NCBI GenBank assembly: GCA_018062305.1
Contig: JAGOSK010000002.1
Coordinates: forward strand, 5,495-69,494
Direction: 5' to 3'
DNA length: 64,000 nt
Source: Minisyncoccota bacterium
GTDB lineage: Bacteria; Patescibacteriota; Minisyncoccia; Phycocordibacterales; CAIZLB01
Part shown: piece after piece, positions 6,522 through 34,368 of the stretch
Numbering within the stretch: the stretch's first letter is position 1
Layout of the letters: every line of letters begins with the position of its first letter
Translations under genes and position numbers: made by a program
Notes under the pieces: model-generated
Database searches by the model: none
What the model was told of the DNA's origin: nothing
Seen by the model: the letters and a program-made list of their open reading frames with translations, nothing else

Positions 6522-8545
<2,024 letters not shown>

Positions 8546-8815: not shown

Positions 8816-8845
8816 TAATTTACTATTGGACCTATAATTATAGTC

Positions 8846-10152: not shown

Positions 10153-10158
10153 CACGAC

Positions 10159-18104: not shown

Positions 18105-18142
18105 TAAAAAAAGAGTAGGGCGATTAAGCTACAGTTTGCAAA

Positions 18143-18952
18143 CTATAGTTTAAAAATAAATTTACGAACAATACGAATATATGCTTTTACAAGTGCTTTA
18201 TAGTAGTTCGGATAGACATGCCTATATTTTTTAACTAATTCTAATACAACAAGTGCAAGTTTAATCCTCTCTTTTCCGTTTGATCCAGAGGCACTGTTTA
18301 TGCGAACAGTATATCGTGTTTCGGTATCAGGAATATTTGTAATGTCACCTATCTGGGCAAGACGAAGCCATAAATCGTAGTCTTCAGCTAGACGCATACT
18401 TGTGAGACCTCCCACTTTATTGTATGCGTCCCTTCGAAATACGACTGAAGAATTAATAATCGGACACCGTAGAAGCATTTCATCATGAATAACTTTTGGA
18501 TCAGTCTTGTGATAAAACCACCACATACGTGTTCCGCTTTCTGTGACGAATTCAGTTTTCTCTGCACCTACCACTAGCACATTTGGATTCTTTTCGAGAT
18601 ATGAAATTTGGTTCTCAAGCTTCTTTGGGTTGATCCAACTATCATCATCATCAAGAATAGCGATGTAGGGGTTCTGCATCTCTGATTGTGCGATACCTTT
18701 TGCACGAGCAGACCCTGGACCTACATTTTGTGCTAGCTCTATTAGTTTAACTCGAGGGTCTGTAGCGCCAATTTCACGTACTATTTTTGCTGTGTTATCT
18801 GTGCTCCCATCTGATACTACTACAATTTCAAAACCTGGGTACTCTGTAGGGTCTTGTGCATTTTGTACAGCAACACTCTGTTCGAGTGCACTTTGAATAG
18901 CACGCGCTATGTATTTTTCTCCATTTTTTGTTGCGATGATTACTGAGATCAT
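18143..18952 (-). CDS. Glycosyltransferase family 2
   Basis: MISVIIATKNGEKYIARAIQSALEQ, VVSDGSTDNT and ILDDDDSW are GT-A fold DxD motifs. Confidence 0.85.
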   Translation of the reverse strand: MISVIIATKNGEKYIARAIQSALEQSVAVQNAQDPTEYPGFEIVVVSDGSTDNTAKIVREIGATDPRVKLIELAQNVGPGSARAKGIAQSEMQNPYIAILDDDDSWINPKKLENQISYLEKNPNVLVVGAEKTEFVTESGTRMWWFYHKTDPKVIHDEMLLRCPIINSSVVFRRDAYNKVGGLTSMRLAEDYDLWLRLAQIGDITNIPDTETRYTVRINSASGSNGKERIKLALVVLELVKKYRHVYPNYYKALVKAYIRIVRKFIFKL

Positions 18953-19013
18953 GTTGGTTGGTACAATTATATAACTCTAGGAATTTCTGTGTGGCACTAG
19001 TATCCCAATTATA

Positions 19014-19955
19014 CTATAATTTTAGCCACTTTTCAGGGATAATATTTGGGTGATCTGTGCCGCTTACAGTCCATTGTTTCGGCGCAATTACTATTTTATC
19101 CGGATTACTATTCAGCCATGCACCCCACCAACTGAAAGAGCTATTGGCAATAATATTATGCTTGCATAAAGACATAAGGGCGAGCTCTTCGTAATCTTGG
19201 AGCTCTGGATTTGAAATATAGGTTACAGGACTTAGTACGCCCCCCTCGTTTTGACTAGAAGGGCTGTTTATAGGGATATTTTTCTTAACCCACTCAATAT
19301 CATCTGAAAATACAAAAAAATGTGGATTCGAGATATGTTGTTTAATGTGTGCTATTGCGTCAGTATAATACTGTATTGAACAAAGCCCTTGAGTTTTGTT
19401 TGCTGATGGATTTGTAACATAATCGCCTCGGCGGACATGAAGTGAAACTGAATTTTCGAAGTCGGATGCTGGATTTCCCATGGCTTGAATTTGATCCATA
19501 TATATTTTCATAACAGGGGATATATGCTCAGGCTTAAGTTGAAAGTCGTTCTGTATCATTTCTCGAAAATCGTTACTACCCACTGTATAGTATTTTTCAG
19601 ATTGAAAAAAACCATCTAGATATAGCGTGCCTGATGTGGCACTTTTTCTCTCGAGTAATTCTGGATGATAATCAATATAGTTCTTTCTAAGAATTTTTTG
19701 ACTGAATGCTCTCAAAACTTTTGAAACTATACCAAATGGATATTTTGCTCGCAGAACGTCTTCTGGCGTTGCGATATCCCCTTGTATATTAAAAAATTGA
19801 AGCCGGTACGAGCGGGGAGTGTCACCTTGAACCTTCGTAGCATAGCCAGTTGTGTCGAGCCTCAGTTCTTCATTGTGAACCTTTGATATGACTCGTCCGA
19901 GTGCATATTGAAACATTTGATTGCCGAGTCCTCCTCGGAGACGTGTGAGTATCAT
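19014..19955 (-). CDS. Alpha-1,2-fucosyltransferase (glycosyltransferase family 11)
   Basis: Carries the GT11 signature motifs GGLGNQMFQYA, HVRRGDY and FSWWGAWL. Confidence 0.85.
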   Translation of the reverse strand: MILTRLRGGLGNQMFQYALGRVISKVHNEELRLDTTGYATKVQGDTPRSYRLQFFNIQGDIATPEDVLRAKYPFGIVSKVLRAFSQKILRKNYIDYHPELLERKSATSGTLYLDGFFQSEKYYTVGSNDFREMIQNDFQLKPEHISPVMKIYMDQIQAMGNPASDFENSVSLHVRRGDYVTNPSANKTQGLCSIQYYTDAIAHIKQHISNPHFFVFSDDIEWVKKNIPINSPSSQNEGGVLSPVTYISNPELQDYEELALMSLCKHNIIANSSFSWWGAWLNSNPDKIVIAPKQWTVSGTDHPNIIPEKWLKL

Positions 19956-20746
19956 GAGATTTTTTTCTTAAACCAGAAACATCCGCATCCATAATTCTCT
20001 GCGTCAGCTTGAGACTTGGTCGCATTGATAAGTATACCGCCGTTTTGAGCGTTTTTATCATCTCGATCATTACGAGCATTCTCGGGAATAAGTGAAAATT
20101 CTACCAATTCAAGGTCTTTGAAATATTCAACAATGTAGATGTATGTATAGATCCGGTGAGCATTATATTCAATCTTGGCTGTGCCTCCGATAGGTGTAAC
20201 AAAAAGAATTGATCCGCCTGGTTTTGTCACACGGATGAGTTCGCGTATCGCCTTCAAATCTGCTTCTGGATCGATCGGATCACCATATCTTCCTAGTCCA
20301 ATATGCTCGATAGTGTGCATACAGGAAATAGACTCGAGGCTATTATCTTCGAAGGGGAGATTCATTAGATTTCCAGGTTTACTTTCAAGATTTGAGAGAT
20401 TCAACTCTGCAGGGCGATAGTCGTAGAATTTTACTGGAATAAAAGCTGAGACGATTCCACAAAAATAGAGACTCGAAGATATATCAGTATGAAATGATGG
20501 GTTTATCTCTTTTACTTTTCGAGCAGCCCATGCAGTGTGAAATACATAGTGTCGGTCAAATCCTGTTGTAATTGTCTTATCTTTGACACAAGGGTAAGCA
20601 TCACTGATGTTGAGAGAAAATCTTGCCGGAGTGCCCGCCTTGCTCGATTGTAGTATTGCTTTCTTGTACTTCATCCAGTCATGTAGGATGAGGGGTGTTT
20701 GGGCGTATCTGATCAATCGTTTGAGTATGTGTTTTAGGTTATTCAT
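19952..20746 (-). CDS. SAM-dependent methyltransferase (DUF268-like) in the glycan cluster
   Basis: ISCMHTIEHIGLGRYGDP...LIRVTKPGGSILFVTP is a Methyltransf_11-like core. It overlaps the GT11 gene by 4 nt. Confidence 0.65.
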   Translation of the reverse strand: MNNLKHILKRLIRYAQTPLILHDWMKYKKAILQSSKAGTPARFSLNISDAYPCVKDKTITTGFDRHYVFHTAWAARKVKEINPSFHTDISSSLYFCGIVSAFIPVKFYDYRPAELNLSNLESKPGNLMNLPFEDNSLESISCMHTIEHIGLGRYGDPIDPEADLKAIRELIRVTKPGGSILFVTPIGGTAKIEYNAHRIYTYIYIVEYFKDLELVEFSLIPENARNDRDDKNAQNGGILINATKSQADAENYGCGCFWFKKKIS

Positions 20747-21939
20747 GGATGTAGTATAGCAAAAAGTGCCTCAATTTCTTTAACTGCATCTGACACTGAT
20801 ATATTGCGAATGCAAGGGGCAATTTCTCCAGCTCTGAGATTTTGGCTGCATTTCCAATCGTCACCCCTACAGCTAACATTTTCATCTGCAATGTATCGAT
20901 TAGTGATAGGATTTCCATAAGGAAAAAATCTATTAAAATGTCCACCACCTAAAATGCAAACTACAGGGGTGCCGACCGCAATTGCTAAGTGAAGTGGTCC
21001 AGTTTCGCTTCCAAAATAGAAAAGTGAACGCTGCAATATATGTGCAAAATTTGGTAGATCCGTAAGTCCTGTAATATTAAATATCTTTTCCTTATTTTTT
21101 ACATCAGCAAATATCTTTTCTGATAAATGTATATCTCCTTTACTTCCAGAGATAAGCACTGATAATCCATATTTCTCAACTACGTAGTCTGCGATTTGTA
21201 CAAACTTTTCCAATTGCCATGTTCGATATGGCGCTCCAGCTCCTGCGAGAAGTACACAGTATTTTTTTTCTTTTAGATTGAATTTTGAAAATACTTCATC
21301 AGCCTCACTGTGATCAAACTTTTGTATATCTAAAGAGGGAAAGGTGAGTGTGCACTGCAGACCTGTCACTGCTTGTGCAAAAAACATATTTCGCATGGGT
21401 TCATTGAGATCTGCGGGTGTTATGATTATTCTCGAGTAGTCACCATCTGTCGACATATTTCCAAAAGCGCTCTCAAATGCAATGGTCTCTTTTGCTCCTG
21501 TAGCTCTCACCATGCGGTCTCCAATATATTCGCGGGAGTATACCGCATGCACGACGGTATCAAAACCCTGCTTCGCTAAATTATGCATAAAATTCCTTCT
21601 GTAAAAAAAGTTTGTTCTAAACTTTTTGCCATCGTAAGGGATAATCTTGTCTATAAAGGAGAATTGATTCAATAATTCCAATGCTACTGTGTTTACCACA
21701 AGACTAATCTCAGCTTCTTTGTAGTATTCTCTATAATACGTAAGTGTCGGTATAAATAGTATAAAATCACCAATTACATCTTTGCGTAGTATGAGAACTT
21801 TTTTCTTATGCGCGGCATTGGTATGAGGTGAGCGAAGAGAAAAACTTCGAGCGGTTCTTAAGATCCAACATTCGATACTGATATATGTATCCATGATGCC
21901 TTTAAAGATAGATCTAGTGATAGTACGAACAGAGCTCAT
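20743..21939 (-). CDS. Glycosyltransferase family 9 (heptosyltransferase-like)
   Basis: KKVLILRKDVIGDFILFIPTL at the N-terminus and GSETGPLHLAIAVGTPVVCILGG near the C-terminus are the classic GT9 motifs. Confidence 0.8.
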   Translation of the reverse strand: MSSVRTITRSIFKGIMDTYISIECWILRTARSFSLRSPHTNAAHKKKVLILRKDVIGDFILFIPTLTYYREYYKEAEISLVVNTVALELLNQFSFIDKIIPYDGKKFRTNFFYRRNFMHNLAKQGFDTVVHAVYSREYIGDRMVRATGAKETIAFESAFGNMSTDGDYSRIIITPADLNEPMRNMFFAQAVTGLQCTLTFPSLDIQKFDHSEADEVFSKFNLKEKKYCVLLAGAGAPYRTWQLEKFVQIADYVVEKYGLSVLISGSKGDIHLSEKIFADVKNKEKIFNITGLTDLPNFAHILQRSLFYFGSETGPLHLAIAVGTPVVCILGGGHFNRFFPYGNPITNRYIADENVSCRGDDWKCSQNLRAGEIAPCIRNISVSDAVKEIEALFAILHP

Positions 21940-21949
21940 TGTATTATAA

Positions 21950-22738
21950 TTATATTATTCCTCGTCTCTTTAATTCTTGATTATCACTATATGTCTTTGT
22001 TTTTAGAAAAATCTTCTTCAAGAACAAATCAAGTTCAAATTTTGTAGAGAACATGAGAAGTTTAAATAGCCATTGTGGGAAGTTTTTATTTGAGAACAAG
22101 TGTATGTTTTTTCCATCAGTGTAGAAATGCACACCATGTTGCTTGGCAATATAGGAGAGTGATTCTTTTGAGTAAAAAGCTACATGTTGACCATGATTGA
22201 GTCCATAGTATTCCCAATCTGAAGCGGGTGGAGTTTCCTTTGGTAACAAGACTGTTGAAAAGAAAATATTTTTTGTAATAGAAAACATTTTGTCTATCTC
22301 TTCCTTGGGGTTGGGGAGGTGTTCAAAACATTCAAACGTACTGAGTAGCTCAATCGGCGTGTTCTGTTCCTTCTTATATTCAAATCCTTGAGCAAATAGA
22401 TTCTTGGTGTAAATATCATCCCATAAGAAATTTAATCCATAATCTCTCATAAGACGTGTAAGCATACCGTAGCCTCCTCCATAATCTAGATAAGTTTTAT
22501 CAGTTCCAAAAATGAGTGAACAGAGAATAAGTGTCTTTCGAGAAAGATAGACATTTCGCATTACATAACCTGTGTCTGTGATATTTATAGGAGCCTCATA
22601 AGCTTCTGTAAGCCATGTTGGATTATCTATAAACATAAAACCACACGATTGGCAGAGATAATACTCAGCCTGATGGGTATTTCGGACAGTAAGTGTTTTT
22701 ACATGTTTTGATTCTGAATCGCAGATTTTACATTTCAT
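21950..22738 (-). CDS. SAM-dependent methyltransferase with N-terminal C4 zinc ribbon (sugar C/O-methyltransferase-like)
   Basis: CKIC...CQSC forms a Zn ribbon. Motif I is LDYGGGYGMLTRLM, with a Methyltransf_13-like layout. Confidence 0.7.
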   Translation of the reverse strand: MKCKICDSESKHVKTLTVRNTHQAEYYLCQSCGFMFIDNPTWLTEAYEAPINITDTGYVMRNVYLSRKTLILCSLIFGTDKTYLDYGGGYGMLTRLMRDYGLNFLWDDIYTKNLFAQGFEYKKEQNTPIELLSTFECFEHLPNPKEEIDKMFSITKNIFFSTVLLPKETPPASDWEYYGLNHGQHVAFYSKESLSYIAKQHGVHFYTDGKNIHLFSNKNFPQWLFKLLMFSTKFELDLFLKKIFLKTKTYSDNQELKRRGII

Positions 22739-22746
22739 AGGTATAA

Positions 22747-23673
22747 CTATATAACTGATTTGAACTTATCCCAAATTTTTCTATATATAGATTTTATATA
22801 TAATCTATGGGATACAATAGAATCTAAGTCTTGTCGTATAGGTAGTTCGGCTTCAAGGTGAGGGCTTGGTAGCTCCTGTATATCAATACTGGACAGCTTC
22901 TTCGAGAATTGACTAAATGATGATTGAGCTTGAGTATGTGTCCCTTCAGATCCAAATCCAATATTTTCTATAAGATTCTGTACTGGTGTTATGCAAACCC
23001 CATTCGATTTAAGTATTGTGTACGCCCACTGTGCATCCCAAGTATTAATCTGCTTATTTCTTATGTGTTTAAATAATGAAATCCAGAATTTACCAATTCT
23101 TCTGTCTTTAAATTGAGATAAAATATGTTTTTGTGTTGTAGATTCTTCAATCCCTGTCATCTCTATGTCGTATGCATTCCAAGCACGGCGCCAGGAAGCC
23201 CAACCCCAAACGTGAACATTTTTAGAAAAGTAATACGAGTCGTGAGTGCCAATATTTTTATTCAACTCATCAGCTATAAAATTACTTCCATTTATATGAA
23301 AAATTCTACTGTCATTTGCGTACTGTGAAAGCATGAGACCTGCAAAATCGAAGAATGTTGGATCAGGTAAACAATCGTCCTCTAGAATAATTCCTTGTTC
23401 TTCATTTTCAAAAAACCAAGTAATAGCGCTAGAAACTGCTTTTTTACAGCCTAAATTTTTATCTCTATATAGTCTTTTGACCTCACAAGGCCAATCGATA
23501 GTTTCAGTAATAGCTCTCACTGCGTCGCATTTTTCTTTTTCCCCAGGCCTGTCCTGACGAGGTCCGTCTGCCGATATATAGAGCTTCTCTGGTTTTGCCT
23601 TTCTTATCACTTCAAAAACACGCTCAGTTGTATCCTTACGATTGAATATTATAAATAAGATAGGGGTTTCCAT
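22747..23673 (-). CDS. GT-A fold nucleotide-sugar transferase (HlpA-like)
   Basis: PILFIIFNRKDTTERVFEVIRKAKPEKLYISADGPR and IILEDDCLP are motifs seen in HlpA-like glycosyltransferases. The family assignment is tentative. Confidence 0.55.
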   Translation of the reverse strand: METPILFIIFNRKDTTERVFEVIRKAKPEKLYISADGPRQDRPGEKEKCDAVRAITETIDWPCEVKRLYRDKNLGCKKAVSSAITWFFENEEQGIILEDDCLPDPTFFDFAGLMLSQYANDSRIFHINGSNFIADELNKNIGTHDSYYFSKNVHVWGWASWRRAWNAYDIEMTGIEESTTQKHILSQFKDRRIGKFWISLFKHIRNKQINTWDAQWAYTILKSNGVCITPVQNLIENIGFGSEGTHTQAQSSFSQFSKKLSSIDIQELPSPHLEAELPIRQDLDSIVSHRLYIKSIYRKIWDKFKSVI

Positions 23674-23718
23674 GTTGGTTATTTAGGCACGATTTCTGTG
23701 GTTGTATTTTAGTTTTAA

Positions 23719-25695
23719 TTATCTAACATAGTAACCACTAGATTTTTTAAATGTAAAAATATCTACACTCCCTCCATGTATATTATACGGTAATACTGCT
23801 GTAAATGGCTTAGGTAGAGCCGCAGCAACAGCGGCACCTCCAGAAAGTACGGTTATGAAATAGTGGCATGAAGAAATCATATCCACGTATTGGAAAAGAT
23901 TTTGTTTTGTAGGATTAATCTCTTCAATTTTTAGATTTCTATTGTCACTCAATCTCTTTTCAATTTCATTATCAAATGTTTTGTCTTTGTAGAACCACCC
24001 CAATTTTTTACCACTAATATAATTTTTATCCACTAAAATTGTATCTGAGTATTCATTTAGAATATTTGGTCTGTAATAGATTTCAGGGATTCCTTCGCCA
24101 TTCAAACCAAATTGTCTTTCTACTATTTCTGTAAGAGCGCAACCTCTTTGGTCTGTAATGATGTTGTAGATTGACTTATCTGAAGCAAATATTTCAAACT
24201 CAAAGAAATTGCCATCGTCTCGTACCCCTTTAAAATAGGGATTCATCTCAAAGCATAATTTAAAAATGTCATTATTTCTCAACGAAGCGATACATCTAGT
24301 TGTTAGATAAAATTTTATTCCGTACTGCTCATGTAATAATCTAGGTAGACTTGTAAACGCCATCCAGTCACCGAGACCTCCGAAACGAATATCAAAGATA
24401 ATTTCCTTTGTCTTTTTAATATATTCTATTCGCTCATAGTAGAATGCTCGTTCCGATTTTCTTTGATAAAGATCAATGAGATTGTTTTTAAATGAAAGAG
24501 CACCGAATATTACTTTAGATAGTGCTGAGTTGTTTTTTATAATCTTTTTTGCTTTGCGTAACATTTTAGACACGATTGATTCTGCATCACCGCGCTTAAC
24601 ATAGTTGCGGATATTTTCTATCTTTTTATATGCTTCACGTTGTGATGTTCCTTCTCGACATAGCTGTGCCATCTGTATTTTTTCCTTCAGAGCAGGATAA
24701 GGAAATTCAGTTTCCGATAGTGTGTTTAAAATGGCTAATGCCTCATTATATAAACCTTTTCTAATATATTCAGAACCGGCCCAGTATCTCTCAGTCATGA
24801 TTTGTGATTTTGATAACCTCTTTACAGTTTCAATAGAATAATTTTGATCAAGATTTGAAGTAAATTCTGTATTGAAAATTTCTGGATAGCTCTTAATTAA
24901 ATCCATCAAACCGATTGTAGTTTGTGTGAAATTGAATGAAAGTATTTCTTTTTGGACATGTTCTTTAAAAAGGATCAAAAACTCATCAAGCACCTCAAAC
25001 CAGTTATAGTTTGTCTTGCCACTTTCATATTCACGCACATAGTATGATTTGTTGAAATGTTGACGGTGAAGATAGGTTGCCTCGGGACACGTGCTTGCAT
25101 ACAAACCGTGTGCTAAAAAACGCCAGGCAAAGGATTGAGTGTCGAACCCATGGAATTCCGTATAGCCATTAGTTATTTCAAATGCCTTTTTTGTATGCAT
25201 GAATGTTGAATAGAGTGGGTTGAAGGGTCCTTTGGTATTCTCAATTAATGCATTTAGTGGAATTTTTTCATTTACATATCCAAATTCATCAACTCTAAAT
25301 ACATCTGACACGTCCGCACCTTTAAATTTAATCGATTTGTGAATACCAACTCCATCGCAATTCAATCTTTTCATATGTGTAAGCATCAATGAAAGTGTGT
25401 TTTCGGGTAACAGATCATCACTATCAAGACAAAAAATAATTTCAGCGGCGCTTTCTTTGATAGCACGGTTCCGCGTTGCCCCACCTCCAAGGTTCTTTTC
25501 GTTTCTATAAATACGTATTTCAGGGTATCTTGATGTGAGAATTTGCATTAAGTTCCATGTTGAATCTGTTGACCCGTCATCTACCATTATAATTTCAAAA
25601 GAACTGAGGTTTTGGATGAAGCATGATTCAACAGCCGCTTCCAGGGTTTCGTAACAGTTGTAGCAAGGGATTATTATAGTTAGCTCAGGTTTCAT
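23719..25695 (-). CDS. Multidomain glycosyltransferase: N-terminal GT2, central helical/TPR-like segment, C-terminal GT9-like domain
   Basis: N-terminus: TIIIPCYNCYETLEAAVESC and IMVDDGSTDST (GT2). C-terminus: FDIRFGGLGDWMAFTSLP and LSGGAAVAAALPKPFTAVLP (GT9-like). 658 aa. Confidence 0.7.
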   Translation of the reverse strand: MKPELTIIIPCYNCYETLEAAVESCFIQNLSSFEIIMVDDGSTDSTWNLMQILTSRYPEIRIYRNEKNLGGGATRNRAIKESAAEIIFCLDSDDLLPENTLSLMLTHMKRLNCDGVGIHKSIKFKGADVSDVFRVDEFGYVNEKIPLNALIENTKGPFNPLYSTFMHTKKAFEITNGYTEFHGFDTQSFAWRFLAHGLYASTCPEATYLHRQHFNKSYYVREYESGKTNYNWFEVLDEFLILFKEHVQKEILSFNFTQTTIGLMDLIKSYPEIFNTEFTSNLDQNYSIETVKRLSKSQIMTERYWAGSEYIRKGLYNEALAILNTLSETEFPYPALKEKIQMAQLCREGTSQREAYKKIENIRNYVKRGDAESIVSKMLRKAKKIIKNNSALSKVIFGALSFKNNLIDLYQRKSERAFYYERIEYIKKTKEIIFDIRFGGLGDWMAFTSLPRLLHEQYGIKFYLTTRCIASLRNNDIFKLCFEMNPYFKGVRDDGNFFEFEIFASDKSIYNIITDQRGCALTEIVERQFGLNGEGIPEIYYRPNILNEYSDTILVDKNYISGKKLGWFYKDKTFDNEIEKRLSDNRNLKIEEINPTKQNLFQYVDMISSCHYFITVLSGGAAVAAALPKPFTAVLPYNIHGGSVDIFTFKKSSGYYVR

Positions 25696-25699
25696 CTTT

Positions 25700-26506
25700 T
25701 TATAGTTTTACAATAAGAACAGATCCGCTTTTGTCTGGCATCGGGATTGGTATTTCTTGCTTGTCTCTAAAGAATGTATCAACAGCCTCTCGTGCGCCGA
25801 TCCAAGAATTATAGTCATGCACAACAATCATTGCACCCGTACTCATTTTTGGATAAAACATTTCAAGCCCTTTGAATGTGGGTTCATATAGATCAGCATC
25901 AAGATGTACAAATGAAAAATTCATACTGTCGAAAGATGTAGGCAGTATGTCAGGGAAGTAGGCTTGGTAATAAGAAACATTAGCATTGCCATCAATATAT
26001 TTTTGTACACTCTCGAGGTTTGTATCTGCGAAGTGGTTCTGTGATATTGAAAGGCCTGTTAGACTTTTTTCAGCGTTTACGCTTCGTTCTTTAAAACCCG
26101 CAAACGTATCAAACAAATGCAATTTTCGTTCAGGGGCATATTTATGTAAAAGCTTCGCTGTTGATCCCTTATATACACCAACTTCAGCAAAATCTCCAGG
26201 AATGTTATTCTCTGTGATTGTACGTAAAAAAAGTACGAGCATGTCTCTACGTGTTGTGTCCCAGGGTTCAATGTCAGTTATCGTTCTCTCGATGCAATCA
26301 TTTTTTGGAAAATAACCATGAGTGATATCTATAAAATCTTTTTTGTACCATAAAGATTTAGGCTGTAAGTCCATCTGTCCTTGAAGATAGAATGCAGACT
26401 TTTTCACTAAGCCTGCCATTGTCTTGCCGTGCATTCTTATTAAGCCATAAAAAAACTCTGATGGATCTTTAATTGATTTAATAATATTTAATAGTATTTT
26501 ATTCAT
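25700..26506 (-). CDS. TylF/MycF/NovP-type sugar O-methyltransferase (macrocin O-methyltransferase family)
   Basis: Motifs GDFAEVGVYKGSTAKLL and VHLDADLYEPTFKGLEMFYPKMSTGAMIVVHDY are characteristic of this family. Confidence 0.8.
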   Translation of the reverse strand: MNKILLNIIKSIKDPSEFFYGLIRMHGKTMAGLVKKSAFYLQGQMDLQPKSLWYKKDFIDITHGYFPKNDCIERTITDIEPWDTTRRDMLVLFLRTITENNIPGDFAEVGVYKGSTAKLLHKYAPERKLHLFDTFAGFKERSVNAEKSLTGLSISQNHFADTNLESVQKYIDGNANVSYYQAYFPDILPTSFDSMNFSFVHLDADLYEPTFKGLEMFYPKMSTGAMIVVHDYNSWIGAREAVDTFFRDKQEIPIPMPDKSGSVLIVKL

Positions 26507-26515
26507 ATGTTTATC

Positions 26516-27463
26516 TTAATGAAGCTTCTTTGCTATCTCCTGATCTATTTTAATTCTTTTTATCCAATAATCCATCCGTAGTGGCTCCCAATTCGGATTC
26601 TTCATAAGCTCATTGTATTTTTGAGATAGAGATTCAGGTGTCTGATAATCGTCTAGTTCCTTCCAATCTTTCACAATCCACATTGGTAATCCAAGCGAAA
26701 CAAAATATCTATAAGCAACAAAGTCTTTGACTATAGGTACTGTACGTAGCTCTAATGCCTCCCAAGTCCTATGGCTTTCTATAGAGTTTCCAGGAGGTGA
26801 GGCGACAAATTTATATGTCATTAATTTTCGCAGATGAAGACTTGGAGGTAGCATCTGCGAAAAAGTTTCCATTAAAGGGTGTTTAAAAAAGAGCTCAAGA
26901 GCTGGCTTTCTTTCTGTTGGATTTGTATACACACTAAATCTAAAAAGAATTTTATCTTGCTTGACTAGAGGGTTGCACCTCATCTTCTTAATCAAACGAT
27001 TGAATACAGCCGGAATACCATTCATGTAATATCTTTTGTTTTCCAGCGAAATCCCAATCGGGACAATCTTATCATGTTTAAAGACAACGTCCTGTGCGTA
27101 GCATTTTACAATCTTATCGTCGATCATATTCGCAAAGGTTTGGTCGATTGCATTATCACCGTTATGTACGAGAAGTATATACGGGTATTTAATTTGTTTA
27201 TGCAAAGTCTGCATGTATTTATGTGCACAGCTATTTGATGCAAAAACGATGTCTCCTTGCTTTACGTCTTTTGGATTGAATGCAGTTTCTTCATCATATA
27301 TATGTTGCGCCAGTAGCCTAAAAGAATCTCCACTTATGAAAGGATAACTTCCAGGACGACTGTCTCTGGTTATTTTCATCCATATTTTTCTATAGATACC
27401 ACGTCGGAGAATCATAATATATTTACTTAAAGTAAATGTAAGTGGGCTTATTTTTGCTTCCAT
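26516..27463 (-). CDS. Hypothetical protein of the glycan cluster (possible transferase)
   Basis: 315-aa ORF co-oriented with flanking glycan genes. No confident motif was found. Confidence 0.55.
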   Translation of the reverse strand: MEAKISPLTFTLSKYIMILRRGIYRKIWMKITRDSRPGSYPFISGDSFRLLAQHIYDEETAFNPKDVKQGDIVFASNSCAHKYMQTLHKQIKYPYILLVHNGDNAIDQTFANMIDDKIVKCYAQDVVFKHDKIVPIGISLENKRYYMNGIPAVFNRLIKKMRCNPLVKQDKILFRFSVYTNPTERKPALELFFKHPLMETFSQMLPPSLHLRKLMTYKFVASPPGNSIESHRTWEALELRTVPIVKDFVAYRYFVSLGLPMWIVKDWKELDDYQTPESLSQKYNELMKNPNWEPLRMDYWIKRIKIDQEIAKKLH

Positions 27464-27670
27464 ATGAGTAATAGTATATCTTATAATATATGTTTTGCGA
27501 GGTGTGTTTCTACGTGTCGTAATGTGTGTAGTCTAAGGCTTGTGTTTGCTTGACTACTGTAGAAGCCCCTCATTATGCACCACATATGCAACTTTAATAT
27601 ACAAGTATAGAATGAGATATTCAATACGTATATTCTTAAACTTGAGGCATAAGTAAACGCCTTGCCGAAA

Positions 27671-29209
27671 TTATCCGCGTCGGAGTGTTTTCTTTGCAAA
27701 ACCCAATATATCCCGCACATCCTCCTTTTCGAAAAACCCGAAGATAAAATAAATACCGAGAAATAAACTTCCAGATACAGCTCCGAATACTAGTACCGTT
27801 GGAAAATTGTATATAAATTGTTTGAATATTAACTGGTTTAATACAAACACAATGACACCAGTAGACAAGAGCTTAGCGGAAAGTGCGACATAATGAATTT
27901 TTCGCCCAGTTAAATTAAGTAATTTGTATTCTATCCAATAGAGGAGTAATAGATATGGTATGAAGCAAAAGAGATATGCCCAGGCTGCTCCGATTATACC
28001 CATCTTTGGAAGGAATATAAAAAGTAGTATTGCGTTTATAAAAGCTGATGTGAGTGACGTCATTGTGAGTTGTTTGAGTCGTCCTAAGCCAGTTAAAAAA
28101 CCTGAAAGAGTACCTGACAATGAAATGATCCAGTTTGTGAGAGCTAATATAACAAGAATACCAGTGGTTTTTTCAGCGACGTCAACGCTTATCCAATATT
28201 TGAGCATAAGGTAAGGGAAAGAGATGATCGTCACCGTAATAGCTGTCGAGAATACGGCAATTAATCTAGTTGTTCTTATATACAGTGTTTTGACCCGTTC
28301 GCGGTCACCAACACTCTCAAAACTCGCTGTCATAGGGAACACCACACTGGTAAATGTCTGTGAGAGTCCTGGAGTCTTGCTTGCTATACTGCCAGCCAAA
28401 CTGTAGTAAGTAAGATTTGATGGACCTATAAATACAGGTATTATGGCCTTATCAAGATAAGCCAAAAGTGAACCTGCAATGTTATTAAAAAAAACTCCAA
28501 AGCCAAAAGTGTATACCTGAAGAAGCTCTCTTTTGTCAAAACCGAATTGGTGCAGATCTTTTTGAGTCTCTACTGGTAGTATGTGTGTAGAATTGTCTCT
28601 ATATAAAAAATAAAAACACGCATACAAAACTGCCAGTGCAATAAAAATATTGTTTAGTCCAATGTGAAATATTACACCTAAGACAATAACAGTTTGTTGA
28701 AATGTAAAGAATGCTATGCCAATTTTTGTACCAACATCTACTCTCTGTAAGGCTGTTGGTATGACTATATATAATGTCACCATAGAGTTTATAAAAAACA
28801 TAATCCCCGCTGATATAAAAGCAGGGTAATAGTGCATATAATTGACGATTGCTTCTGGAAAAAATATATTTCCAATATATAGAGTAGAGATTATTAGTAG
28901 TCCTCCAAATATCCCAATAAAAAATAAAATGGTGTTACCAGTCTTAAATAGGGAAGATAAGCCTAGATAGTTTTTTGTACTGTGCCGTTCTGCTATGAAT
29001 TTAGCAAAGGCAGAAGAGACACCTATTTCAATCAGCCCTACTATACTTATGAGAGTACTAATAAATACATATATACCGTATTCTTTTACACCCAGACCAA
29101 TAACAACTATTGGTGTAACAAAAATTGCTATGAGTATAGGCCAACCAAAACCTATTAGACTAAAAGAAATATTTTTTAAAGCCCTGTGAGTTATGCTAGT
29201 TTTATCCAT
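27671..29209 (-). CDS. wzx: Wzx-type oligosaccharide flippase (polysaccharide biosynthesis protein, MOP superfamily)
   Basis: 512 aa with about 14 predicted TM helices. The N-terminus LKNISFSLIGFGWPILIAIFVTPIVVIGLGVKEYGIY is typical of PF01943 proteins. Confidence 0.85.
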   Translation of the reverse strand: MDKTSITHRALKNISFSLIGFGWPILIAIFVTPIVVIGLGVKEYGIYVFISTLISIVGLIEIGVSSAFAKFIAERHSTKNYLGLSSLFKTGNTILFFIGIFGGLLIISTLYIGNIFFPEAIVNYMHYYPAFISAGIMFFINSMVTLYIVIPTALQRVDVGTKIGIAFFTFQQTVIVLGVIFHIGLNNIFIALAVLYACFYFLYRDNSTHILPVETQKDLHQFGFDKRELLQVYTFGFGVFFNNIAGSLLAYLDKAIIPVFIGPSNLTYYSLAGSIASKTPGLSQTFTSVVFPMTASFESVGDRERVKTLYIRTTRLIAVFSTAITVTIISFPYLMLKYWISVDVAEKTTGILVILALTNWIISLSGTLSGFLTGLGRLKQLTMTSLTSAFINAILLFIFLPKMGIIGAAWAYLFCFIPYLLLLYWIEYKLLNLTGRKIHYVALSAKLLSTGVIVFVLNQLIFKQFIYNFPTVLVFGAVSGSLFLGIYFIFGFFEKEDVRDILGFAKKTLRRG

Positions 29210-29288
29210 TAGGACTGAATTATACTATAAAAATAGATATGATATACTCCATCTTATATCAAATTAAGCTACATTTAAGAAGATTAAA

Positions 29289-31721
29289 ATGTCCAAAAAC
29301 ACCAAAAACATCCTTTTATACAGCATAATGACCCTTATCTACGCTGTATTTTTCACCCCGCTCATTATATCGACATCTCTCTTTTTCCCATACATCACCG
29401 GAAAAGCATTCGCTTTTAGACTTCTTGTTGAGCTCGCAACCGTACTATATATAGTACTCGTGGTTTCTGATCGCTCATTTTTGCCAAAGAAAGGTACTAT
29501 TCTTGCCTCTATCGTAGTTTTCACCGCAGTTCTTGGTATCTCCACACTCACTGCCGAAGATCCGACAAGAAGTTTTTGGAGTAACTTTGAGCGAATGGAA
29601 GGGTATGTTACAGTGTTACACCTATTCTTTTTCTTTGTAGTTACGACTTCATTGTTTCGAGCAAAGCAAACTTGGTATGCATTATTCAACACTAGTCTTG
29701 TCATCAGTATTATCATCGGACTTCGGGCTTTTGCTGATTATGACCCATCACGTGATGCTTCACTCGTCATTGAATTTTTTAAAGGGATCAAACACTTTTT
29801 TTATGTAGTCTTTAACGGCTATGACCAGACAGTACGAATTGCTGGTACACTCGGCAACTCAAGTTATCTTGGAGTCTATTCGCTTATACATGCGTTTTTG
29901 GCTGGGTTAATGCTGACGACGCTTATGGGGGTAAAGAAGTTCAAAGAAGCTCCAACTCGTTATATAGTCTATATTCTCGCGTTATTGTTCAACATCGTCG
30001 TACTCTATAACACTGGAACACGAGGATCATTTGTTGGTCTCGTTGCTGGTGCTTTTGTAACAGCACTCATTCCTCTCGCACTCATTCTTTTTGGAAAAAA
30101 TGGAACTGGAGGAGAATCGTTTAACCAATCCATTTCAGAACATATCAAGAAGAAAATAAAAATTGCGAGTGGTGTTTCTCTGGTAGTGATTCTACTTGCT
30201 GTAGCGCTCCTTGGTCTCAACAAAGAATCATCTTTCGTAAAAAGCTCAAACTTACTCAGTCGATTTAGTTCACTGATAACACTCGACATCAAACATGTAC
30301 TTGCGACTCAAGGTGAATCGCGAACGCTCTTGTGGGGTATGTCGTGGAAAGGAGTTCAAGAGAGACCGCTCCTAGGATGGGGGCAAGACAATTTTCCATA
30401 TGTATTTTCGAAATACTATGATCCAAAAATGTATGCACAAGAACAATGGTTTGATCGTACACACAATGTATTCTTTGACTGGTTGATCGCAGCTGGATTT
30501 CTTGGACTACTCAGTTATCTTGGACTTTTTGTAGCGCTACTATATGTACTTTGGAAAAAGACAGTTCTAAACAAAGAAAACATCGTATATGATTTTCTCG
30601 AAAAATCTATACTCACTGGACTCTTGACTGCATACTTTGTGCACAACGTCTTTATCTTCGACAACCTGGCCAGCTATATTCTCTTCTTTATATTGCTCGC
30701 ATATGTACATCAGCAGAGTAATGCAAGTGTACTATTTTCAGCAACGGAGATGTCGAGTACAAAAACAAGTACGAAATTCAATACATACGCATCGAATCCT
30801 ACAGTACAATGGGCCATCATCTTTATTGCAATCCTTACTTTTGGATATGTTTCAAATAAAGCAATATATAGACCATACATGGCAGGACGGACACTTATAC
30901 AAGCGCTACAGCTCGCTCATCCTGATGCGGCCACATACTATGGTCAGGAAAAAGCTTCCCCTAAAAATGTTTTAGCGCTTTTCCAAAAAGCACTTGCGTA
31001 CGATACATTTGCTAATACTGAGATCAGAGAACGCCTTGCTGAAGTTGTGCCTACGCTCCTCAACGGAAGTAAAGATGCAGAACTAGTGACCGCTTTCACC
31101 GCACTTGTGTCTAATGAATACCAACGTGCAATAAAGGAAACACCGAAAGATCCACGCCCATTGGTTTTTCTCGGTATGTACTTACAAAAGTTCGGGCTAT
31201 ACAAAGAATCAGCCATCTATTTTGATCAAGCTATTGCGCTCTCACCGACCAAGCAATCATTCTTGTTTCAGAAAGGGATAGTTGAAGTTACAGTCGGTCA
31301 GTATCCACAGGCGGTAGAAACATTTAAAAAAGCATATGAACTTGAACCAGCAAGCAATGAATCGAAAGTCTTGTATGCACTAGCACTTACGTATGCAAAT
31401 AGATTTACTGAAGGAAAAAAGATACTGACAGGAGATCTAGTTGCACTGACCGACCCGAGATTGCTCAACGTATTAATAGAAAAGAATATGTTTAAGGAGA
31501 TTATTGAAATTGCAGAACTTAAGATAGCAGCTGAGCCTAAAAACCCACAAGCGTATATGTCACTCGCTGGCCTATACCTCAAGATGAATAGAAGAACTGA
31601 GGCAATTACACAAATACGAAAAGTAATGGAACTCGCACCTGATTTCAAGGAGACTGGTGAATTCTATATCAGAGAAATACAAGCAGGAAGAGACCCTTCA
31701 GCCCCAGCAGTGAAGCCGTAG
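29289..31721 (+). CDS. O-antigen ligase/polymerase-like membrane protein (Wzy_C domain) with C-terminal TPR repeats
   Basis: About 12 TM helices, with a Wzy_C-like block near HNVFFDWLIAAGFLGLLSYLG. The last roughly 270 aa form TPR repeats. Confidence 0.8.
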   Translation: MSKNTKNILLYSIMTLIYAVFFTPLIISTSLFFPYITGKAFAFRLLVELATVLYIVLVVSDRSFLPKKGTILASIVVFTAVLGISTLTAEDPTRSFWSNFERMEGYVTVLHLFFFFVVTTSLFRAKQTWYALFNTSLVISIIIGLRAFADYDPSRDASLVIEFFKGIKHFFYVVFNGYDQTVRIAGTLGNSSYLGVYSLIHAFLAGLMLTTLMGVKKFKEAPTRYIVYILALLFNIVVLYNTGTRGSFVGLVAGAFVTALIPLALILFGKNGTGGESFNQSISEHIKKKIKIASGVSLVVILLAVALLGLNKESSFVKSSNLLSRFSSLITLDIKHVLATQGESRTLLWGMSWKGVQERPLLGWGQDNFPYVFSKYYDPKMYAQEQWFDRTHNVFFDWLIAAGFLGLLSYLGLFVALLYVLWKKTVLNKENIVYDFLEKSILTGLLTAYFVHNVFIFDNLASYILFFILLAYVHQQSNASVLFSATEMSSTKTSTKFNTYASNPTVQWAIIFIAILTFGYVSNKAIYRPYMAGRTLIQALQLAHPDAATYYGQEKASPKNVLALFQKALAYDTFANTEIRERLAEVVPTLLNGSKDAELVTAFTALVSNEYQRAIKETPKDPRPLVFLGMYLQKFGLYKESAIYFDQAIALSPTKQSFLFQKGIVEVTVGQYPQAVETFKKAYELEPASNESKVLYALALTYANRFTEGKKILTGDLVALTDPRLLNVLIEKNMFKEIIEIAELKIAAEPKNPQAYMSLAGLYLKMNRRTEAITQIRKVMELAPDFKETGEFYIREIQAGRDPSAPAVKP

Positions 31722-31772
31722 TATTGAGCGCTATATCTATATCTATCACCATTAACAGTCACGCCAAATTAC

Positions 31773-32915
31773 ATGAAAAAAACTGAAAAAGTTTCGCAAA
31801 ATGTTTCTTCGAAAAAATCTAAAGTTGCACTCATTACAGGTATCACCGGACAAGACGGTATGTATCTTGCAGAACTACTCCTCAATAAAGGATATATTGT
31901 TCATGGTCTCAAAAGACGTTCATCTTCACTAAACACAGAACGTATAGATCATCTCTATCAAGATCAGCATGAAAAGAGTGTTCGATTTTTTCTACATTAT
32001 GGGGATATGACTGACTCAACGAACTTAATCCGTATAGTTCAGCAAGTTCAGCCAGATGAAATATATAATCTCGCAGCGCAATCACATGTACAGGTTTCTT
32101 TTGAGACACCAGAATATACAGCGAACGCCGATGGAATAGGAGTGCTTCGAATCCTTGAGGCAATACGAATTCTTGGTCTCGAAAAAAAGACACGGTTTTA
32201 TCAAGCGTCGACTTCAGAGTTGTATGGATTGGTTCAAGAGGTTCCACAAAAAGAGACCACACCCTTTTATCCGCGTTCACCATACGGTGTTGCCAAACTC
32301 TACGGATTTTGGATTACTAAAAACTACAGAGAAGCATATGGAATGTATGCGTGTAATGGAATCTTGTTCAATCACGAGAGTCCTGTTCGTGGAGAAACAT
32401 TCGTAACTCGAAAAATTACTCGTGCGGTTGCGCGTATCTCACTTGGTTTACAAGACTCATTGTATTTAGGTAATCTCGATTCAGAGCGCGACTGGGGACA
32501 CGCAAAAGACTATGTAGAAGGAATGTGGCGCATGCTACAGCAAAAGAGTGCAGAGGACTACGTGTTGGCAACTGGAGTAAAATATACCGTGCGAACATTT
32601 GTAGAAAAAGCTTTTGCACACGTTGGTATTACTATTGTATGGAAAGGTAAAGGAGTTAACGAAGTTGGATATGATGCGAAAGATGCCTCAAAAAATAAAA
32701 GACCACTCGTAAAAATCAGTAAAAAATATTTCAGACCTGCAGAAGTTGAACTACTTATCGGTGATGCAACAAAAGCTCAGACGAAGCTTGGATGGAAACC
32801 AAAATACACACTTGATGAACTTGTGAAGGAAATGGTTGAAGCAGATGTACTACTTATGAAGAAAGAAATATATTTAAAGGAAAATGGATTCAAGACACTA
32901 AAGAAATATGAATAA
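31773..32915 (+). CDS. gmd: GDP-mannose 4,6-dehydratase
   Basis: [20 protein letters not shown] is the Rossmann GxxGxxG motif. The YxxxK catalytic region and the full-length 380-aa layout match Gmd. Confidence 0.95.
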
Positions 32916-33891
32916 TCTTGCACAAGCAGATTCCGATATGAAGAAAGATTCAAAAATATATGTAGCGGGGCACAATGGTATGGTAGGTTCAGCAATTCTT
33001 CGGAAACTTCAAACCGATGGATACACAAATATACTTGTACGTACTCGAGCAGAACTTGATCTCACAAATCAAAAACAAGTTCATGAGTTTTTTATTCAAG
33101 AAAAACCAGAGTATATATTTCTTGCTGCTGCAAAAGTTGGGGGAATTGTAGCAAATAATACATATCGTGCGGACTTCTTATACGAAAATATTATAATTGA
33201 GGCAAACGTAATACATGCTACAGCTGAATTAAAAAACAATTCAAAGGAAATAAATCCCAAACTTCTCTTTCTTGGTTCATCTTGTATATATCCAAAACTT
33301 GCACCTCAGCCACTCAAAGAAGAGTATCTATTGACGGGTCCACTCGAAGAAACAAACGAGCCGTATGCTATTGCTAAAATTGCGGGAATAAAAATGTGTG
33401 AAAGTTATAGAAGACAATATGGTTGTAATTTTATCTCCGTGATGCCCACAAATCTCTACGGTCCGAATGATAATTATAATGCACAGACTTCGCATGTACT
33501 TCCTGCACTTCTACGAAAATTTCATACTGCAAAAATTTCAAACGCTTCGACAGTAGAGTTGTGGGGGACAGGTACACCACTACGAGAGTTCATGCATGTA
33601 GATGATCTTGCTGATGCCTGCATTTTTCTTATGCAAACATATAACGAAGAGGGAATAGTAAATATTGGGGTGGGTGAAGACCTTACTATAAAAGACTTGG
33701 CACATATGGTGCAAGAGGTTGTAGGCTTTGGAGGTAAAATAGTATTTGACGCAACAAAACCAGATGGAACTCCTCGAAAACTTATGGATGTTACAAGACT
33801 CACAGCTCTTGGATTTAAAGCAAAAATAAATTTAAAAGATGGAATTGCTGCGGTATATAAAGATGTGATTGAAAATAAATTGTTCGAATAA
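32908..33891 (+). CDS. fcl: GDP-L-fucose synthase (GDP-4-keto-6-deoxymannose 3,5-epimerase/4-reductase)
   Basis: [19 protein letters not shown] at the N-terminus. An 8-nt overlap (ATGAATAA) with the gmd stop indicates translational coupling. Confidence 0.95.
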
Positions 33892-34102
33892 AGAAAATAT
33901 TTTTAAAAATAAAATTCAGAATAAAACTTTCGCAAAAAACTTTCTGAAAAATAAAAATAAAATAAAAAAAGTTATCCACAACATTTTTAAAAAAAATATT
34001 GCTTGTAATTGAATTGTGAAAGATAATTAGTACATGCATAGAGATGAACGGTCATCATCACTATCACTTACCAATAATTGTTCCTTACTTCAAATAAATT
34101 TT

Positions 34103-34177
34103 ATGGCAGCAAAGAAAAAAGCTAAGAAGGCAGCAAAGAAGACAGCAAAAAAGAAAGCTACAAAGAAGCGAAAATAA
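34103..34177 (+). CDS. Micro-ORF encoding a 24-aa Lys/Ala-rich peptide (MAAKKKAKKAAKKTAKKKATKKRK)
   Basis: ATG to TAA in frame, immediately followed by a strong terminator. There is no SD. Whether it is coding is uncertain. Confidence 0.3.
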   Translation: MAAKKKAKKAAKKTAKKKATKKRK

Positions 34178-34196
34178 TTTTATTTTCTCACTTCAT

Positions 34197-34230
34197 AAAA
34201 ACCACTATCGCAAGGTAGTGGTTTTTATGT
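34197..34230 (+). terminator. Rho-independent terminator
   Basis: AAAAACCACTA-tcgcaagg-TAGTGGTTTTT. Confidence 0.6.
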
Positions 34231-34368
34231 TTATTCTAAGACTTCATGAAATATTCATCATTCGGCTGAGTGTGGGTAGGGGTATATCGTCTTATTTGTA
34301 CAGTGATATAATTATGGGGTATAAAAAGCAGTAAAATTTGGCACCATATTAATAAATTTAAAAATCAA

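Follow-up and report, generated by a model that had tools for sequence, protein, structure and literature searches.

The window analysed here is the whole 64-kb stretch of contig JAGOSK010000002.1 from a Minisyncoccota bacterium, and its positions 18143-33891 hold a cluster of surface-glycan genes that faces a gene for a membrane protein with a Wzy_C domain and TPR repeats (Wzy_C-TPR below). According to the listing of open reading frames (ORFs), ten minus-strand ORFs occupy 18143-29209 and three plus-strand ORFs occupy 29289-33891. This is exactly the 13-ORF layout, in coordinates and strands, of the initial annotation, which had been made from the letters of the DNA. Neighboring minus-strand genes are 4-61 bp apart or share a 4-bp overlap, the exception being a 207-bp gap between ORF9 and wzx, and a 79-bp intergenic region lies between wzx and the divergent Wzy_C-TPR gene. 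The tight spacing and the overlaps argue for co-transcription of the minus-strand genes. A promoter scan of 17800-34500 gave 50 promoter-like sites vs 58 ± 7 expected by chance and is uninformative on operon structure; terminator-like sites overall were not enriched in the same region in a consensus scan. Pfam family calls were counted only above the gathering cut-offs, and NCBIfam matches were judged against the curated bit-score cut-offs. The genes and features are as follows.

1-899, minus strand: GT4 glycosyltransferase (Glyco_transf_4 4.2e-20, Glyco_trans_4_4 3.2e-15, partial Glycos_transf_1)
975-2357, plus strand: polyprenyl-phosphate glycosylphosphotransferase, the priming enzyme (Bac_transf 2e-56, over 879-2357)
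18143-18952, minus strand: ORF1, GT2 (GT-A) glycosyltransferase, conserved distal end of the island (Glycos_transf_2 2.5e-31)
19014-19955, minus strand: ORF2, GT11-family fucosyltransferase (Glyco_transf_11 1.6e-35)
19952-20746, minus strand: ORF3, class-I S-adenosylmethionine (SAM) methyltransferase (DUF268 2.4e-14, Methyltransf_11 9.8e-07)
20743-21939, minus strand: ORF4, GT9 (heptosyltransferase-family, GT-B) glycosyltransferase (Glyco_transf_9 3.9e-16)
21950-22738, minus strand: ORF5, SAM methyltransferase with an N-terminal Zn-ribbon (Methyltransf_23 1.7e-16)
22747-23673, minus strand: ORF6, probable GT-A-type glycosyltransferase of a large family outside Pfam, with a GnT-I-like hint
23719-25695, minus strand: ORF7, two-module glycosyltransferase, first gene of the variable cassette (Glycos_transf_2 1.4e-29 at the N-terminus)
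25700-26506, minus strand: ORF8, TylF-family sugar O-methyltransferase, in the cassette (TylF 5.5e-24)
26516-27463, minus strand: ORF9, predicted GT114 (A075L/exostosin-like) inverting GT-B glycosyltransferase, in the cassette (family profile vs PDB)
27671-29209, minus strand: ORF10, Wzx-type (Polysacc_synt/MOP) flippase, in the variable cassette (Polysacc_synt 4.8e-13, MatE)
29289-31721, plus strand: Wzy_C-TPR membrane protein, candidate WaaL-fold ligase or O-oligosaccharyltransferase, core gene (Wzy_C 6.3e-18 and TPR)
31773-32915, plus strand: gmd, GDP-mannose 4,6-dehydratase (TIGR01472 598 bits vs 415; GDP_Man_Dehyd 3.4e-158)
32908-33891, plus strand: fcl, GDP-L-fucose synthase (Epimerase 2.3e-65; NF047922 E = 1.6e-149)
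34194-34229, plus strand: terminator-like hairpin from the consensus scan, with a 16-bp stem and a T-run, closing the Wzy_C-gmd-fcl unit
34369-37167, plus strand: predicted secreted surface protein of 932 residues, Ser/Thr-rich with Ig-like repeats (N-terminal hydrophobic signal-like segment; Kre9_KNH three times, 1.3e-19)

The Wzy_C-TPR protein matches PF04932 with 65.4 bits against a cut-off of 31.7. Its membrane domain adopts the fold of the ligase WaaL, including a large outer loop toward the C-terminal end of the transmembrane part, and the closest solved structure is WaaL itself. A phmmer search of the protein against PDB sequences found TPR proteins only, and the membrane domain alone found no match. 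Helix boundaries and the positive-inside rule give a topology of 13 transmembrane helices with the N-terminus inside, the short inner loops having 12 Lys and Arg in 59 residues vs 6 in 70 residues in the short outer loops. In this topology 48 of the 49 invariant residues that lie outside the transmembrane helices are on the outer face, 22 invariant residues (R325, R345 and H392 among them) fall in an 83-residue outer loop (311-393), and the 280-residue TPR domain is predicted to be outside the membrane. Conserved residues on the outer face are found in all GT-C(B) transferases of lipid-pyrophosphate-linked sugars (PMC10920833). Across 24 Wzy_C-TPR sequences, R245, R345 and H392, and likewise R325, are invariant, and they lie inside the Wzy_C match. 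An Arg/Arg/His triad is essential in WaaL and PglL (PMC3643930) and corresponds in E. coli WaaL to R215, R288 and H338; judged by position within Wzy_C, R245, R345 and H392 are plausible equivalents of this triad. The cluster has no further polytopic membrane protein, and no Pfam family of Wzz or another polysaccharide co-polymerase (PCP), of a bacterial tyrosine kinase (BY-kinase) or of an LCP ligase was found among the approximately 48 ORFs scanned across the window.

To place the locus among its relatives, close relatives (L003, L004 and L085-L088) were collected from exact-protein look-ups. The strain represented by L085 and L086 has a Wzy_C-TPR protein of 98% identity. L085 and the window share 97.8% DNA identity over 29288-34982, which comprises Wzy_C-TPR, gmd, fcl and the start of the next gene, and 82.9% over 20206-23666, and there is no detectable DNA similarity over 23667-29287, which comprises ORF7, TylF, ORF9 and Wzx. 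Toward this breakpoint the protein identity falls from 98% for the DUF268 protein through 93% for GT9 and 80% for the Methyltransf_23 protein to 65% for ORF6. The replacement in L085 consists of a GT2-methyltransferase fusion, an ORF6 paralog, LicD, another methyltransferase, a polysaccharide deacetylase and a Wzx of 28% identity. The right-hand breakpoint is located one base before the start codon of Wzy_C-TPR, and the cassette (23667-29287) has the lowest GC content in the region, 0.351 vs 0.395 for the window and 0.40-0.41 for the flanks.

In L003, L004, L087 and L088, the Wzy_C-TPR proteins are 57-70% identical and are found in a common chromosomal backbone, whose order is a VirD4-like ATPase, the minus-strand block (GT2-GT11-DUF268 ... 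GT114-Wzx), Wzy_C-TPR, a variable gmd/fcl, and SecA-AI2E-CAP-MFS-RNase J. The arrangement of GT2-GT11-DUF268 ... Wzx divergent from Wzy_C-TPR recurs in L003, L004 and L087, where orthologs of the ORF1 GT2 occupy the same position with 45-56% identity, and the DUF268 protein shows 58-98% identity in the relatives. The middle of the minus-strand block is different in each of these four relatives, one of which bears GDPD, NTP-transferase and HAD genes and lacks GT11. In L003 and L004 the housekeeping neighbors are 66-93% identical, Wzy_C-TPR 57-67% and GT11 31-34%, and Wzx is below BLAST detection. The locus is a variable island at a fixed site, in which the ligase-like gene and the flanks are conserved and the Wzx/transferase cassette is exchanged between strains.

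A more distant set consists of 80 loci among the matches listed, taken from GTDB species representatives with Wzy_C-TPR proteins of 33-44% identity (best 44%); gene calls in these loci are simple longest-ORF calls, and family labels are from local iterative profiles. The homologs carry the source names Patescibacteria, Paceibacteria or Parcubacteria, and Wzy_C-TPR is conserved at full length across the whole class. Across Paceibacteria, the gene secA lies within six genes downstream of Wzy_C-TPR in 44 of 52 loci, and murB is frequently located between the two. At least two glycan-family genes are among the eight genes upstream of Wzy_C-TPR in 45 of 63 loci; in 18 of the 63 a divergent Wzx is no more than three genes away from it, and in 13 a GT11 gene, with or without gmd/fcl, lies upstream. 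The murB-like gene encodes about 340 residues (e.g., L020 12257-13291), and 28 of the 46 genes between Wzy_C-TPR and secA belong to this one family; the window has no MurB-like gene between the two, and gmd, fcl and the gene for the 932-residue protein occupy that position.

Because Wzy_C-TPR has the WaaL fold, is conserved across the class and is unchanged across a swap that replaces the flippase, it appears to behave like a ligase or oligosaccharyltransferase rather than like a Wzy polymerase. Wzy polymerases are specific for the repeat unit and have diverged to identities as low as 16% among the serotypes of a single species (PMC10920833; PMC12004945), in contrast to WaaL and PglL-type enzymes, which are conserved and accept many different glycans. 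PglL-type enzymes transfer glycans en bloc from undecaprenyl pyrophosphate with relaxed glycan specificity, and their genes are often near those of the protein substrates (PMC3643930). The initial annotation had described the cluster as Wzx/Wzy-type; the Wzx and the priming enzyme are indeed present, whereas no Wzy that co-varies with the cassette is found, the sole Wzy_C protein being 98% identical across the swap.

Among the cassette genes, ORF9 had been described as an unknown protein; it has about 276 homologs, none of them named. A 30-sequence profile of its family against PDB matches PBCV-1 A075L (8q8i, 8avq and 8asa; E = 2.5e-36) over about 210 residues, and 24 of the 30 family members match RXYLT1_C and 8 match Exostosin_GT47. 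A075L, with which CAZy GT114 was founded, is an inverting beta-xylosyltransferase of the GT-B type; it attaches xylose to O4 of L-fucose, with Asp73 as the catalytic base and Asn153, Arg158 and Arg208 binding the donor phosphates (PMC11571054). In the HMMER alignment these four residues correspond to D103, N181, R185 and R232 of ORF9, all of which are invariant in the family. ORF9 is thus assigned to the GT114 glycosyltransferases on the basis of the profile match and the conserved catalytic residues. ORF9 resembles the chlorovirus enzyme in the predicted GT-B fold, in the catalytic Asp and the phosphate-binding Asn, Arg and Arg, and in the fucose-glycan context, but A075L acts on a viral capsid N-glycan in PBCV-1, whereas a bacterial lipid-linked glycan is predicted here. 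Because a GT114 protein is present and its characterized relative acts on O4 of fucose, the fucose may not be terminal, and the terminal alpha-1,2-fucose proposed in the initial annotation becomes an unsafe prediction. No UDP-xylose synthase gene is evident in the 64-kb window.

The single sequence of ORF6 has no match in Pfam, NCBIfam or PDB, even at E ≤ 10. Its family is large, with 11,528 representatives of 50%-identity clusters at E ≤ 1e-3 and 3,362 at E ≤ 1e-30, and no Pfam-A model recognizes it, only 3 of 30 members matching GT2, weakly. E98-D99-D100 is invariant in the family. Hhalign aligns ORF6 with GT2 over 112 N-terminal columns (P = 0.001), and a 30-sequence profile against PDB matches only GT13 enzymes (GnT-I/POMGNT1), over the EDD motif and at a non-significant E of about 1. 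ORF6 therefore probably has a GT-A fold, and the earlier name for it, HlpA-like GT-A, is weakly supported. ORF7 begins with a GT2 module (residues 1-227), which a helical linker (228-429) joins to a Rossmann-like domain at the C-terminus (430-658). Of the GT2-TPR-GT9 fusion proposed for this gene, the GT2 part stands, but neither TPR nor GT9 was detected at significance: the C-terminus compared with GT9 gave E = 0.13 in Pfam, 2e-3 in NCBIfam, P = 0.012 in hhalign and E = 1 in BLASTP, and in a fold search the GT-A domain masked it. Members of the ORF7 family are modular in build. The GT2 and the helical stalk also occur alone (about 390 residues), and the fusion partners of the GT2-stalk are a Rossmann-like domain, DUF6492 (PF20102) or Methyltransf_11, the last in the 98%-related strain (L085 4340-6091).

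The remaining genes of the cluster agree with the initial annotation, whose GT2, GT11, DUF268-type, GT9, Zn-ribbon methyltransferase, TylF, Wzx, Wzy_C and TPR, gmd and fcl assignments are all supported by profiles. The GT11, TylF and GT9 calls hold in Pfam, and the relatives keep the same backbone, so that neither ground for refutation named in the initial annotation applies. ORF2 scores 123.2 bits against a PF01531 cut-off of 23.9 over profile positions 2-280 of 298, which is nearly full length, and two GT11 motifs, HVRRGDY and SSFSWWGAWL, are legible in its sequence. ORF4 scores 59.6 bits on PF01075 against a cut-off of 22 and matches NCBIfam heptosyltransferase models at 1e-19 to 1e-14, each under the equivalog cut-off. 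ORF8 scores 85.3 bits on PF05711 against a cut-off of 23. The Zn-ribbon of ORF5 is CKIC...CQSC at residues 3-32 (CxxC...CxxC), and the Wzx protein has about 12 transmembrane segments. Where four methyltransferases had been counted, three are present (ORF3, ORF5 and ORF8). The fcl product scores 497.4 bits on NF047922, 2.6 under the cut-off of 500, and fcl overlaps gmd by 8 bp; the profiles of gmd, fcl and GT11 confirm the earlier statement that genes for GDP-fucose synthesis lie beside a GT11. The relative L087 (Wzy_C-TPR 70% identical) carries GT11 and GT10 (FucT_N) fucosyltransferases with gmd/fcl at 1075-4830, which predicts a doubly fucosylated glycan there.

At the left end of the window, the mechanical ORF of the priming transferase begins at TTG 879, and the likely start is ATG 975. 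The protein passes TIGR03025 of NCBIfam (302.8 bits vs a cut-off of 295.55) and has the large WbaP/WcaJ-type architecture with 4-5 N-terminal transmembrane segments, but it is under the cut-off of the WbaP-specific NCBIfam model TIGR03022 (169 vs 403). Thus, of the WbaP-type priming transferase and GT4 annotated at 1-2357, a glycosylphosphotransferase and a divergent GT4 gene are retained, the 3' part of the latter lying beyond the window edge, and the WbaP-specific assignment is not. A homologous divergent pair of GT4 and priming transferase abuts the Wzy_C-TPR gene directly upstream in L032, and a priming transferase abuts it in L035.

The gene immediately beyond fcl encodes the 932-residue protein, in which Ser and Thr make up 23.5% of residues vs 9.5-15.6% in 23 other proteins of the window. 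An ortholog of 39-47% identity in L088 (11282-14389) likewise lies between Wzy_C-TPR and secA, and the protein is a candidate acceptor of the glycan. The host belongs to the ultra-small Patescibacteria, or Candidate Phyla Radiation (CPR), and besides typical housekeeping genes the window contains a 16S rRNA gene. A GT11 protein identical to ORF2 occurs both on a contig of the metagenome-assembled genome GCA_017993115.1 and on a Logan assembly. Groundwater CPR cells viewed by cryo-transmission electron microscopy have a surface layer (S-layer) and pili and lack an outer membrane (bioRxiv 10.1101/2020.05.14.094862), which agrees with the small monoderm genome supposed at the outset.

Taken together, the locus would produce a Wzx-dependent, lipid-linked heteroglycan in the form of one large oligosaccharide, which a WaaL/WsfB-like ligase with relaxed donor specificity would transfer en bloc, probably onto surface proteins; we give this reading a probability of about 0.55. 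The polyprenyl glycosylphosphotransferase at 975-2357 would prime undecaprenyl phosphate, and up to eight glycosyltransferase modules (GT4, GT2, GT11, GT9, ORF6, the two-module ORF7 and ORF9) may extend the chain on the cytoplasmic face. GT11 is expected to add fucose from GDP-fucose, which the neighboring gmd and fcl would supply, the GT114 protein ORF9 may glycosylate that fucose, by analogy with its sole characterized relative, and the three SAM methyltransferases would methylate sugars. Wzx would then flip the finished unit, and Wzy_C-TPR would transfer the glycan en bloc on the outer face, as a ligase rather than as a repeat-unit polymerase. The outward TPR domain most likely recruits a protein acceptor, which could be an S-layer protein, a pilin or a secreted Ser/Thr-rich protein such as the 932-residue neighbor, and the exchange of cassettes including Wzx may lead to serotype-like surface variation. 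Lipid A-core is excluded as the acceptor by the lack of an outer membrane in CPR cells. A protein acceptor is favored by the architecture of WsfB, the outward TPR domain, the S-layers and pili of CPR cells and the adjacent Ser/Thr-rich protein, and we favor protein O-glycosylation with modest confidence.

Several points weigh against this reading. The match of the Arg and His residues to those of WaaL comes from their position in Wzy_C and not from a residue-level structural alignment, the PglL_A motif (PF15864; defined in PMC3643930) is not among the Pfam hits of Wzy_C-TPR at E ≤ 0.01, and the likeness to WsfB is one of domain architecture and setting. The WaaL fold is common to a clan that includes some Wzy families and SEDS proteins (PMC10920833) and is compatible with polymerase activity, and Wzy structures may be under-represented in the PDB set searched for the fold. 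None of the labeled glycan families is found among the eight genes upstream of Wzy_C-TPR in 12 of the 63 loci; as the linkage to secA and murB persists where few glycan genes are nearby, the primary role of Wzy_C-TPR could be a housekeeping envelope function unrelated to this glycan. The protein acceptor is a candidate only, argued from indirect evidence. The priming transferase is 16 kb off, with rRNA, SecDF and glycolytic genes between, and its link to the locus comes from synteny in two distant genomes. Genes for the supply of GDP-mannose were not found in the 64-kb window, and the completeness of the pathway claimed in the initial annotation is a supposition. Finally, the co-occurrence of GT114 with GT11 (5/6 vs 11/60) is not phylogenetically independent, and p rises from 0.0025 with close relatives counted to 0.11 without them; with significance lost in this way, we keep the co-occurrence as a lead only, rather than as evidence for xylose on fucose.

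Could Wzy_C-TPR instead be the polymerase of a classical Wzx/Wzy system, with a capsule-like or secondary-cell-wall product and with the TPR domain as a scaffold or chain-length determinant in place of Wzz? The Pfam family Wzy_C spans both polymerases and ligases, inverting Wzy families share clan GT-C1 with WaaL (PMC10920833), and a priming transferase with Wzx and many glycosyltransferases is the standard Wzy-dependent layout (PMC12004945); TPR modules also occur in scaffolds of polysaccharide export, according to a reference cited in PMC2943079. A polymerase would be expected to co-vary with its repeat unit, however, and Wzy_C-TPR is nearly the same protein in strains with a different cassette and a different Wzx, remains 57-70% identical next to different sets of glycosyltransferases, and is full-length throughout the class. 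The window also lacks the Wzz/PCP, BY-kinase and LCP families, and up to eight transferase modules would make an unusually large repeat unit. Polymerization is thus an unlikely account of the locus.

A ligase could also act on something other than protein, such as peptidoglycan or a lipoglycan or lipoteichoic-acid-like glycolipid, in a housekeeping step analogous to that of WaaL on lipid A-core. WaaL as the closest solved structure, the undetected PglL_A motif and the murB/secA synteny across Paceibacteria, which fits a core cell-envelope function, all favor such a step, and GT121 ligases exist in Gram-positives, where capsule-to-peptidoglycan ligation has been hypothesized (PMC10920833). But TPR is a protein-protein interaction module, and Wzy_C with a C-terminal TPR has been described for protein O-oligosaccharyltransferases (WsfB and PglL; PMC2943079). 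The literature yielded no precedent for WaaL-type ligation to peptidoglycan, a task that falls to LCP enzymes in monoderms (PMC7831098), and CPR bacteria lack the lipid A of the analogy, so we consider a non-protein acceptor doubtful. Far less probable, to the point of being nearly negligible, is that the genes form no single pathway at all and that Wzy_C-TPR is a mere neighbor in a generic district of sugar genes with several unrelated products. Its linkage to secA is tighter than to any glycan gene, and the distance of the priming enzyme, the uninformative promoter scan and the gap between wzx and ORF9 fit such a district as well. This is opposed by the spacing of the minus-strand block, 9 of its 10 genes being at most 61 bp apart or overlapping, by the recurrence of the GT2-GT11-DUF268 ... 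Wzx arrangement beside Wzy_C-TPR in three relatives, by gmd and fcl beside a fucosyltransferase both here and in many distant loci, and by the exchange of the Wzx-containing block as a whole.

The proposed en bloc transfer of a lipid-linked glycan has counterparts in known systems. In WsfB, the S-layer O-oligosaccharyltransferase of a monoderm, a Wzy_C domain is followed by TPR at the C-terminus, and a TPR protein adjoins WsaB (PMC2943079). Among Firmicutes, the slg loci (Paenibacillus alvei with WsfB; Geobacillus stearothermophilus with WsaB, WsaA, WsaP and WsaE) resemble the present locus in the WbaP-family primer, several glycosyltransferases, O-methyltransferase activity, the final transfer by a Wzy_C-domain O-oligosaccharyltransferase, and a host that has an S-layer and no outer membrane. 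In contrast, Geobacillus exports by an ABC transporter and this locus has Wzx, and the ligase here is a class-wide core gene by secA and murB with a strain-variable cassette next to it. The O-glycosylation loci of Bacteroidota, namely the 27-kb cluster of Tannerella forsythia and lfg of Bacteroides, have Wzx, about five glycosyltransferases and three methyltransferases in one polycistronic cluster, with conserved ends and a middle that varies between strains or species, and make a glycan with L-fucose, xylose and O-methyl sugars (PMC6120980). They differ in having diderm hosts, Pse/Leg nucleotide-sugar pathways and no Wzy_C-TPR neighbor, and the available part of PMC6120980 lists no oligosaccharyltransferase gene in the cluster.

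O-antigen clusters with WaaL share the priming transferase, the glycosyltransferases, Wzx, gmd-fcl with GT11, variable cassettes of low GC in one chromosomal place and a WaaL-fold enzyme, whose relaxed donor specificity is a prediction here; unlike their hosts, CPR bacteria have neither a lipid A-core acceptor nor an outer membrane, and neither Wzy nor Wzz was identified here. The ligase candidate also differs from the WaaL of Gram-negatives by an extra transmembrane helix and the external TPR domain of 280 residues. PglL/PilO share the Wzy_C domain and, judged by position, plausibly the conserved Arg/Arg/His, but PF15864 was not detected in Wzy_C-TPR, and its membrane domain found no phmmer match in PDB. 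To our knowledge, all characterized PglL enzymes are from Gram-negatives. Our literature searches found no description of Wzy_C-type ligases or glycan loci in CPR or Patescibacteria. The locus thus resembles known slg, Bacteroidota O-glycosylation and O-antigen systems and is not categorically new biology; what is new beyond the initial annotation is the GT114 assignment predicted for ORF9, the WaaL fold with the outward TPR domain, the core status linked to secA and murB, and the exchange of cassettes at the strain level.

Other features of the window are also noted. The 16S rRNA gene, in the region 6522-10153, has 1403 nt and yet covers the full bacterial model (1-1533). It is followed by an ORF of 364 residues (8846-9940; weak DUF6055 match) and then by tRNA-Ile(GAT), and there is no 23S rRNA gene within the 64-kb window; this suggests that the rRNA operon is unlinked or atypical. 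A VirD4/TrwB-like coupling ATPase (15867-18104) has a Gly/Ser-rich low-complexity tail of about 300 residues and is conserved as the neighbor on the left side of the glycan island in L003, L007, L008, L011, L060, L069 and L087. A protein of 1470 residues (52879-57291) carries a Peptidase_S74 domain, which serves phage tailspikes and endosialidases as an intramolecular chaperone; the neighborhood is otherwise housekeeping. The gene of a low-molecular-weight phosphotyrosine phosphatase (11058-11465) adjoins an inositol monophosphatase gene; it was considered as a Wzb-like capsule regulator and rejected, since the window has no partner BY-kinase or Wzz and the gene is far from the cluster.

The CPR or Patescibacteria make up a large and mostly uncultivated share of bacterial diversity; they live on the surface of other microbes, and the chemistry of their own surface is essentially uncharted. 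This locus predicts a fucosylated and methylated surface glycan, whose fucose is possibly glycosylated further, and one conserved enzyme with a WaaL fold and a TPR domain is the likely attachment step across the whole class. Tentatively, and at somewhat less than even odds, Wzy_C-TPR may serve Paceibacteria and related CPR as a general O-oligosaccharyltransferase for proteins, decorating S-layer proteins, pilins and other secreted Ser/Thr-rich proteins with whichever glycan the adjacent cassette specifies. The same ligase is a possible promiscuous enzyme for glyco-engineering, and labeling or sorting of such cells might be achieved with lectins or antibodies that bind fucose. The cassette swap in near-identical strains is a signature of diversifying selection as in O-antigen and capsule loci, and suggests that surface glycans determine how these episymbionts interact with hosts or phages. 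If the proposed role is true, swaps of cassettes that include Wzx would give these obligate episymbionts a serotype-like diversity of surfaces, on which attachment to the host and escape from phages would depend.

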